DNA of 64,000 nucleotides from Candidatus Daviesbacteria bacterium (GTDB taxonomy: Bacteria > Patescibacteriota > Microgenomatia > Daviesbacterales > UBA10151), in the NCBI GenBank assembly GCA_016176335.1, contig JACOXI010000004.1, positions 82,303 to 146,302 on the forward strand, given 5' to 3'. The translations under genes and the position numbers were made by a program. This document shows positions 21,291 through 22,025 of this stretch, piece after piece. Numbering within the stretch: position 1 is the stretch's first letter; the number at the start of each line of letters is the position of its first letter. The notes beneath the pieces are model-generated. The model had not been told where the DNA came from. It saw nothing but the letters and a program-made list of their open reading frames with translations, and did no database searches.

Positions 21291-22025
21291 TGTTCCTACT
21301 TGACATGTGGGAAGGTAGATGGAAGCATATAATTTAATGGTTAATCCTCCCTTTGCTTCAGGTGAGTTTTATCATGTTTATAACAGAGGAGTCGAAAAAA
21401 GGATTACTTTCCTGGATAAATGGGATTTCCTAAGATTTTTAGAGACTTTGGATTTTTACAGAAAATCACCTACTCCAATGAAACTTTCAGATTTCAGAAG
21501 AGGTGTGATTAAACTCAAAAAAGCGGAAAACCAAAAAGAGATAGTACGAATTTTTTGTTACTGCCTAATGCCGAACCATTTTCATCTTTTAATTCGACAA
21601 CTGGAAGAAGGTGGAATATCAGAGTTTATGAGGAAGTTTTCAGATAGTTATACTAGGTTTTTCAATACAAAATATAAAAGAATAGGTCCTCTTTTTCAGG
21701 GAAGGTTTAAAGCAAAGCTAATCGAGACTAATGAATACTTACTCCAACTTTCAAAATATATTCACCGTAACGCGTTCCCACTTACGAAGTGGGAAGGTAG
21801 AGTTTATCCCTATTCCTCTTATGGTTATTATTTGAATGAAGAGAAACATCCGTTTTGTGATACGGAATTTATTGGAGCGTATTTTTCTAAAACAAATCCT
21901 AAATTAAGCTACAAATCATTTGTGGAGGAAACAGAATTTGGAGATCCTGTAACTGTATATAACTTATCTATAGATAGTGATGACTGCGTTCCCACATCCG
22001 ATGTGGGAAGGTGATGTAGGAAGCT
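21291..22025 (+). mobile_element. RAYT gene with three REP-like hairpins carrying the GTGGGAAGG motif
   Basis: Hairpins ttcctacttgacatgtgggaagg (21291-21315), ttcccacttacgaagtgggaagg (21775-21797, inside the ORF) and ttcccacatccgatgtgggaagg (21990-22012, overlapping the stop). Confidence 0.6.
21319..22014 (+). CDS. IS200/IS605-family Y1 (HuH) transposase, REP-associated tyrosine transposase (RAYT)-like
   Basis: EFYHVYNRGV ... CLMPNHFHLLI (HuH) ... YIHRNAFPL...YPYSSY (catalytic Tyr helix). Confidence 0.8.
   Translation: MEAYNLMVNPPFASGEFYHVYNRGVEKRITFLDKWDFLRFLETLDFYRKSPTPMKLSDFRRGVIKLKKAENQKEIVRIFCYCLMPNHFHLLIRQLEEGGISEFMRKFSDSYTRFFNTKYKRIGPLFQGRFKAKLIETNEYLLQLSKYIHRNAFPLTKWEGRVYPYSSYGYYLNEEKHPFCDTEFIGAYFSKTNPKLSYKSFVEETEFGDPVTVYNLSIDSDDCVPTSDVGR

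Follow-up and report, generated by a model that had tools for sequence, protein, structure and literature searches.

A Y1 HUH gene of a Daviesbacteria genome with one hairpin repeat at both ends and inside its coding sequence: a probable REPtron-like locus

Introduction

Systems that pair repetitive extragenic palindromes (REPs) with a REP-associated tyrosine transposase (RAYT) have been characterised mainly in Proteobacteria, Cyanobacteria and Bacteroidetes, and their role in the cell is, to our knowledge, still unknown. Does such a system also exist in Patescibacteria? The question is raised by a stretch of 64,000 nucleotides from Candidatus Daviesbacteria bacterium (an ultrasmall bacterium of the Microgenomates; contig JACOXI010000004.1 of assembly GCA_016176335.1, positions 82,303 to 146,302), here called the window, in which an open reading frame (ORF) for a 231-residue protein of the Y1 HUH kind has short hairpins of one sequence at its 5′ end, at its 3′ end and, in frame, next to the codon of its catalytic tyrosine. 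A first-pass annotation of the window, made from the letters and the ORFs, had described this gene as a RAYT with three REP-like hairpins. The reading that we favour and consider probable is that of a REPtron-like locus, in which a domesticated and vertically inherited single-stranded DNA nuclease/transferase of the RAYT kind is accompanied by three cognate copies of its hairpin.

A Y1 HUH protein at a fixed locus

The product of the ORF has the fold and the catalytic residues of a Y1 HUH protein, as the first-pass annotation had read from its motifs HVYNRGV, NHFHLL and YIHRNAF. It matches Pfam Y1_Tnp (PF01797; E = 2.6e-9, 37.7 bits against a cut-off of 23), and N86-H-F-H89 and Y147 are invariant in an alignment of 21 homologs (positions 21577-21585 cover the HuH motif with H87/H89, and 21757-21759 form the codon of the catalytic Tyr147). 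With an AlphaFold (AF2) model of the protein, whose mean predicted local distance difference test (pLDDT) score is 69.7, the top Foldseek matches were Y1 transposases only (IS608 TnpA, the RAYT structure 4er8 and ISDra2 TnpA, with probability 1.00; the PDB entries matched include 4er8, 2a6o and 2xm3), and the highest template-modelling (TM) values, 0.50/0.67, were those for the Escherichia coli RAYT 4er8; a sequence search of the PDB returned marginal matches to ISDra2 TnpA only (E ~0.07). The tyrosine motif, YIHRNA in the window, ends in NA, NS, NT or NP among orthologs and reads YIHRNP or YIHLNP in most paralogs, a pattern that looks class-2-like (Y---N[PA]), though the proline is replaced in the window protein. 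In most orthologs translation starts at the equivalent of M7 (ATG 21337, MVNPPF). Rfam and PADLOC scans gave nothing relevant, with one sub-threshold snoRNA match and no PADLOC hit.

Homologs are numerous (more than 7,800 proteins detected, and at least ~600 pattern matches in species-level genomes), and the closest, at 63-91% identity, come from Microgenomates, for example Daviesbacteria and Levybacteria. In every ortholog locus examined the Y1 gene follows a class-I tyrosyl-tRNA synthetase (TyrRS)-like gene and precedes the ATP synthase operon, in some cases with one or two variable genes interposed; this order was seen in L004, L005 and L007-L010 (L and P numbers are our handles for the sequences compared), and the neighbours of the window gene were matched in seven ortholog loci. 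Across these seven the identity to the window is 85/83/73/76/69/63/64% for the Y1 protein, and in the same genome pairs 83/85/82/83/83/78/80% for AtpD and 76/81/81/81/76/75/73% for AtpA, with RecG at only 66-68% and AtpG at only 51-68%. The Y1 gene is thus conserved like AtpA and AtpD, at the level of a core gene. The species-level genome collection holds one Y1 ortholog per genome among the matches listed, and the window has no second copy. Single-copy, syntenic and strongly conserved, the gene behaves as a domesticated one and not as one that hops, which had been among the suggestions of the first-pass annotation.

Immediately upstream lies a 523-aa ORF (19715-21286, + strand) with a hydrophobic C-terminal half and no Pfam or PADLOC match. 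Close relatives have this ORF in synteny with the Y1 gene, at 62-86% identity, and L005 lacks it; L003, a candidate for another variant without it, merely reaches the end of its contig there.

Three hairpin copies in the window

The three copies of CGYG-TTCCYAC-N7-GTGGGAA-GGTRR make up a 31-nt direct-repeat family of 68-81% identity (Table 1). The full hairpin pattern occurs three times in the window against 0.02 expected, a number reached by none of 100 shuffles, and GTGGGAAGG occurs four times against 0.51 expected, the fourth occurrence (28244) being a lone chance match, without a hairpin, within the ATP synthase beta gene. The positions given in the first-pass annotation agree with these to within 1-2 nt (its first copy begins 2 nt early, its second is exact and its third lies 1 nt late), as does its placing of one copy inside the coding sequence by the catalytic tyrosine.

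The left end of the 5′ element directly adjoins the TAA (21284-21286) that closes the 523-aa ORF upstream; the core of this copy ends 5 nt, and the GGGAAGG of its 3′ arm 3 nt, ahead of ATG 21319. Its stem has a single T:G mismatch and its loop contains TTGACA (21300-21305). The internal copy is in frame, begins six codons past Tyr147 and occupies codons 153-159, coding for F153-P-L-T-K-W-E159-G-R, a peptide that the model places in a low-confidence loop at residues 152-161. The 3′ copy is read as the C-terminal VPTSDVGR and ends at 22011, so that it abuts the stop codon (22012-22014); the overlap with the stop that had been claimed for it holds for the extended GGTGA motif alone, which does cover that codon. 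Folding, proposed with the first-pass annotation as a check, bears out the internal and 3′ copies, which form 9-bp stems with 3-nt loops (-8.9 and -9.2 kcal/mol as DNA; z -4.25 and -4.27); the 5′ copy is not significantly stable as DNA (z -0.3) and is marginal as RNA (z -1.9). The stretches of lowest confidence in the model of the protein are residues 63-68, 152-161 and 207-231, and the hairpin-coded residues 152-161 and 217-231 fall in segments with pLDDT<50.

Table 1. Positions in the window of the Y1 gene, the three hairpin elements and a promoter-like site.
Feature	Position	Strand	Basis
Y1 HUH protein gene, 231 aa	21319..22014	+	ORF list, Pfam, Foldseek, invariant residues
5′ hairpin element aaTCCGTG-TTCCTAC-ttgacat-GTGGGAA-GGTAGAt	21289..21319, core 21293-21313	+	repeat and hairpin scans, ortholog position
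Internal hairpin element CGCG-TTCCCAC-ttacgaa-GTGGGAA-GGTAGA	21771..21801, core 21775-21795	+	repeat and hairpin scans, folding, ortholog codons
3′ hairpin element TGCG-TTCCCAC-atccgat-GTGGGAA-GGTGAt	21985..22015, core 21989-22009	+	repeat and hairpin scans, folding
Promoter-like site TTCACA-18-TATAAT, 11/12 matches	21163..21192	+	consensus match only, within the 3′ end of the upstream ORF

Conservation and joint change of the hairpins in orthologs

Orthologs of the Y1 gene share this hairpin core at the three corresponding positions, the 5′ end, the internal site and the 3′ end, and the full asymmetric element reads AATCCGTR-TTCCCAC-N7-GTGGGAA-YGTAGW, with a GTAG or GTAA tag 1 nt 3′ of the hairpin in most copies (equal to CTAC on the 5′ side of the other strand). 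The orientation of the internal element is always that of the sense strand, and in roughly half of the ortholog lineages the 5′ and 3′ copies point in opposite directions. Several ortholog ORFs read through the 3′ hairpin; elsewhere the stop comes first and the hairpin lies 19-55 nt downstream.

That the internal copy is more than a by-product of the protein sequence follows from its codons. Thirteen distinct hairpin-bearing orthologs provided 110 codon columns with a conserved, degenerate amino acid, of which only eight use a single codon, and four of these eight are stem codons of the hairpin, F153 TTC, P154 CCA, L155 CTT and E159 GAA (hypergeometric P ~1.2e-5; kinship acts equally on all columns). 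Neighbouring Leu, Pro and Ser columns have four to six codons in use. In the same 13 orthologs the residue preceding the tryptophan is Lys, Met or Glu, yet its codon is always NNG. Residue 160 is variable (G/R/S/A/H), with a codon that mostly retains the xGT of the GTAG tag. Frozen stem codons, the G-ending codon before Trp and the xGT at residue 160 exclude a constraint that acts on the protein only; these alignments show nucleotide-level constraint on the internal copy.

Changes in the hairpin, too, tend to be shared between its positions. In the clade of L139, L140 and L221 the 5′ arm TTGACAC replaces TTCCCAC at every position that could be scored. For L139 and L140 this means all three copies; for L221, with no 5′ flank available, it means the internal and 3′ ones. 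L136 and L137 have retained the flank copies and lost the internal one, and L005 has a perfect internal copy and imperfect flank copies. The change of arm throughout one clade, together with the patterns of L136, L137 and L005, implies that the internal copy co-varies with those on the flanks and can also decay independently of them.

Two single orthologs show other kinds of change. L134, an ortholog at 73% identity, has five TTCCCAC copies in 15 kb (at the 5′, internal and 3′ positions of the gene, in atpG and in a GT2 glycosyltransferase gene) that share the loop TTGACGA, whereas in the other genomes each hairpin position keeps a loop of its own; this looks like recent homogenisation or spread in the L134 lineage. 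In P0062 (67% identity) the hairpin-coded segment is partly duplicated at alignment columns ~160-180, NAFLLNRNAFLLKKWEGKEQ, which suggests slippage or re-copying at the internal hairpin.

A layout shared across Patescibacterial Y1 genes

The arrangement extends well beyond the orthologs. Among 151 distinct related genes from species-level genomes and metagenomes, surveyed for the same hairpin (stem of at least 7 bp) occurring at least twice within the gene and 200 nt on either side, 70 have a repeated hairpin, as against 3 of 346 size-matched control windows from the same loci; the comparison of such arrangements among relatives that had been proposed earlier thus turned out in favour of an association. 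The hairpin stands on both flanks in 48 of the 151 genes, and a flank copy is combined with an internal one in 42. More than 20 unrelated stem sequences are represented, and paralogs that share a genome differ in their hairpins but not in the layout. Internal copies are concentrated around query residues ~54-70 and ~150-162, with others at the C-terminus; at the site of the internal window copy, the hairpins of paralogs code for peptides quite unlike that of the window protein. Residues 63-68, part of the first of these hot spots, likewise have pLDDT<50 in the model of the window protein.

Dispersed copies and decorated genes in relatives

Hairpins of the TTCCCAC type also occur away from the gene. 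In 355 kb of ortholog flanks there are 15 perfect dispersed copies, or 0.42 per 10 kb, where ~0.001 would be expected by chance (355,093 positions, 1 in 4^14), and several lie in frame within recG, atpG and the GT2 glycosyltransferase gene of relatives. TTCCCAC-N7-GTGGGAA with its GTAG-type tag is therefore a repeat family that is present at the gene and dispersed at low copy number in relatives, and the proposal of a hairpin family tied to the Y1 protein is upheld by the three shared ortholog positions, these dispersed copies and the paralog-specific hairpins. The same protein loops are occupied in other genomes by other palindromic repeats and are, in this sense, hot spots; when the recG, GT2 and atpG sites were compared in filled and empty states, neither a clear-cut insertion boundary nor a target duplication was discernible.

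The corresponding genes of the window have repeats of their own. In recG (9293..11392, - strand), an in-frame tandem heptamer TCGGTAG, in ~4 copies and including GTAG, lies at 10957-10986, the exact site of a TTCCCAC hairpin in the relatives L004 (6580) and L131; in L131 the hairpin loop contains a further nested block of 18 nt, and a different hairpin again occupies this site in L133. The heptamer tract could be a scar, or else a site that is targeted repeatedly. Compared with the L139 ortholog, the GT2 glycosyltransferase (30842..31795, + strand) contains an insertion of 12-13 aa, PSTKFIPSEVEGL, at 31028-31066; its coding sequence is an imperfect palindrome, CCTTCGAC...GTCGAGGG, at the site of the L134 TTCCCAC hairpin, so that different palindromic repeats fill one protein loop across genomes. 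Window AtpG (atpG 26586..27500, + strand) contains a 19-aa repeat-like insertion with ACGAT-rich short repeats (27189-27245), and the atpG loops of L007 and L131 have insertions of the 'DSRLRGND' type coded by a TTCCCGC..GCGGGAA hairpin. Core proteins of these genomes thus seem to be decorated by more than one REP-like family.

Relation to known systems

A REP inside a RAYT gene had been called unusual in the first-pass annotation, and this overstates the case. Quentin et al. (2018, PMC6006769) described RAYT genes with paralog-specific REPs on their flanks and, in TnpAY1 subclass 2.4, REPs in frame within tnpA-REP genes, and in-frame intragenic REPs, as well as REPs that overlap the ends of RAYT genes or supply their stop codons, have also been described (Di Nocera et al. 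2013, PMC3733652). A RAYT gene with a REP inside it is thus of a kind already known. The present case differs from these precedents in lineage, motif set, GTAG polarity and the two recurrent intragenic sites; the literature searched contained no paper that connects RAYTs with Patescibacteria and no description of hairpins at these gene positions.

A close parallel is the REPtron of E. coli YafM (PDB 4er8), which shares with the window gene the Y1 HUH fold, with the best TM value, single-copy vertical inheritance, a short GC-rich flanking hairpin that is also found elsewhere in relatives, a hairpin private to each paralog and an adjacent GTAG-type tetranucleotide. The window protein differs in being longer (231 aa), with an SS-motif C-terminal domain, in belonging to a Patescibacterial host, in the absence of any REPIN doublets among the copies seen, and in its profile score, tag position and copy number, which are weighed below. 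Subclass 2.4 (Bertels group 4; PMC6006769) is alike in having cognate REPs in the RAYT coding sequence, with the frame kept and in peripheral loops, plus copies on the flanks; the Patescibacterial hot spots, by comparison, lie before the HuH motif (~54-70) and right after the Y motif (~150-162), the hairpin of the window ortholog group fills the linker after the Tyr helix without lengthening it, and the motifs are NHFH/FQ/YIHRN in place of NH[IFV]H/WQ/YIxNNP. By motifs only, the assignment would be to subclass 2.1, the TIRYTs (Bertels group 1), which have NH[YF]H, FQ, Y[IV]HxNP, an SS tail and ~238 aa; this subclass is described as free of REP-like hairpins, some members having terminal inverted repeats, GGGGWSAS (PMC6006769, PMC3733652), whereas the hairpins of the window family are clear.

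Two further likenesses concern mobility and placement. IS200/IS608 TnpA resembles the window protein in fold, catalytic motifs and, as far as the window goes, hairpins at both gene ends on one strand, and differs from it in that the window gene is not mobile and has neither a Y---Q signature nor a tnpB. The Rickettsia palindromic elements (RPEs) and intragenic REPs (PMC3733652) are likewise short, in-frame palindromic repeats in surface loops of functional proteins, often those of DNA-repair genes, and the hairpins that relatives carry in recG, atpG and the GT2 glycosyltransferase gene resemble them in placement; unlike in those cases, the presumed mobilising enzyme is here itself decorated, at positions that recur across many paralogs.

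Weighing the explanations

On the REPtron-like reading, and by analogy with what has been proposed for RAYTs and REPs, the Y1 enzyme would bind the hairpin on single-stranded DNA and would occasionally copy or convert it. Copies in or beside its own gene would survive only where they are tolerated, in the loop at ~54-70, in the linker after the Tyr helix at ~150-162 and in the C-terminal tail. Because the enzyme goes on recognising them, the three gene copies would stay alike and change together, whether by conversion, by selection for binding sites or by both. Control of the expression of its own gene would be a likely side role, with the 5′ loop of orthologs supplying a -35-like TTGACA.

Several observations weigh against this reading. 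The protein scores 42.9 bits with the NCBIfam equivalog model NF047646 (REP_Tyr_transpos), under its cut-off of 80, and its motifs NHFH, LFQG and YIHRN, its SS tail and its length place it closest to subclass 2.1, a group reported without REPs (PMC6006769). The tag, GTAG on the 3′ side and 1 nt from the hairpin, has a polarity opposite to that of canonical REPs, which have GT[AG]G 5′ at the foot, and the three window copies share one orientation, unlike the inverted pair typical of REPtrons. The hairpin scan found no dispersed copy in the remaining 63 kb of the window, so that the status of a high-copy REP is not established for this organism, and extrapolation from relatives gives a low copy number, at most a few tens per Mb. 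In L139 and L140 the protein is intact while the hairpins decay, and its main function may therefore not need the copies in its own gene; in atpG the hairpins replace a variable loop without lengthening it, and insertion events are thus not directly visible. The RAYT/REP label given in the first-pass annotation stands as regards the paralog-specific hairpin families, and falls short as regards the profile score, the side of the tag and the lack of further copies in the window.

The most serious rival, which we think doubtful though worth keeping in mind, is that the hairpins act mainly in cis on the Y1 gene, with the dispersed copies secondary and binding by the Y1 protein optional: the 5′ copy would hold the -35 box of the promoter or, as in IS200, mask the ribosome-binding site from within the 5′ untranslated region, the internal copy would be an operator, a pause site or a processing site, and the 3′ copy would protect the mRNA end. 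In IS200 a stem-loop near the start codon represses translation, and Beuzon and colleagues are said to have found in 1999 that RNA stem-loops repress its transposase. The TTGAC(A/G) of the 5′ loop is kept in orthologs even where the stem has decayed (L140), and in L212, L007 and L131 a promoter scanner calls TTGACA/TTGACG-18-TATAGT/GATAAT/CATAAT with the -35 in that loop and a -10 that ends 6-7 nt ahead of the conserved MxNPPF start; a sigma-70-like -10 so close to the start implies a nearly leaderless mRNA. TATA-like hexamers lie just 3′ of the 5′ hairpin in many paralogs. In the window itself the scanner made no call through the loop, the TTGACA being 20-22 nt from the nearest -10-like hexamers, which counts against this rival; the GGGAAGG next to the ATG and the strong promoter-like site 125 nt upstream (Table 1) speak for it, and if that promoter is used, the 5′ hairpin with its GGGAAGG arm would come to lie in the 5′ untranslated region beside the start codon. 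A role as intrinsic terminator was considered and dropped, as no T-run follows any of the three window copies, and so was a function at the RNA level revealed by a strand bias of wobbles, since the G:T pairs of single-mismatch copies (3 sense, 6 antisense) gave no signal. A hairpin that serves one gene in cis does not explain why the same sequence is found in unrelated genes and intergenic sites of relatives, and a generic terminator or stabiliser would have no need of a paralog-specific hairpin on both flanks and in the coding sequence.

Two other readings have far less to recommend them. An active insertion sequence of the IS200 type, with the flank hairpins as subterminal ends in direct orientation and the whole unit of ~730 bp transposing, is highly improbable: the size (21289-22015, ~727 bp), the presence of one Y1 gene with flank hairpins in the same orientation and the fold matches to IS608 and IS200 TnpA do suit that architecture, but the place beside the ATP synthase operon is conserved even in orthologs of only 63-65% identity, the species-level matches listed include one ortholog per genome, the Y motif is class-2-like (Y---N[PA]) and not Y---Q, and neither identical copies at different loci, on plasmids or on phages nor empty sites were seen. 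The fixed locus and the core-gene-level conservation together rule out an active IS200 and indicate strong purifying selection. Scarcely credible is the notion that the internal palindrome is incidental, an FPLxxWEG protein motif with self-complementary codons, and that the flank copies are due to chance or local duplication. FPLxxWE is indeed conserved in nearly all close homologs; against this stand the frozen synonymous sites of the stem among freely varying neighbours, the invariably G-ending codon before Trp, the xGT kept at residue 160 and the different peptides that paralogs' own hairpins encode at this site, and the shuffles exclude chance.

The REPtron-like reading, if correct, means that a very large Patescibacterial family obeys RAYT/REP logic in tiny, gene-dense genomes, with hairpins that are private to each enzyme and lie largely inside coding sequences, among them the one for the enzyme itself, where two sites recur. 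The pairs of paralog and hairpin (more than 20 stems in 151 genes) would form a covariation set for how Y1 enzymes read hairpins, and conservation at the level of a core gene, at a fixed site by the ATP synthase operon, argues for a host function. A bolder extension, for which we would claim only a slim chance, is that the intragenic hairpins are obligatory self-recognition sites, kept at one or two fixed places in the coding sequence and at the promoter of each Patescibacterial Y1 enzyme. In this way the enzyme would monitor or restrain the gene that encodes it, through the non-template strand while that strand is single-stranded, and a switch in protein specificity would have to be matched in every copy that the gene carries, a built-in circuit of protein-DNA co-evolution with hundreds of natural specificity pairs.

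Other hairpins in viral contigs and in the window

A scan of viral contigs with the 14-base core returned only unrelated high-GC doublets, TTCCCACGC..GCGTGGGAA, with no Y1 homolog nearby among the matches listed. These contigs (L016, L017, L046, L054, L059, L064, L088, L102 and L106; GC 0.50-0.65) carry inverted, REPIN-like doublets of CGTTCCCACGC-N5-GCGTGGGAACG spaced 75-110 nt apart, with a TTCCCAC/GTGGGAA core and no Y1 homolog in the fetched stretch, and probably represent an unrelated REP family of other bacteria. Within the window, the strongest other GC-rich hairpin is CTCGCAATGACGTCATTGCGAG, with a perfect 9-bp stem (6963-6984), and hairpins with at least four G/C in the stem number 17 against ~4 in shuffles; among all of these, the TTCCCAC family is the one that recurs.

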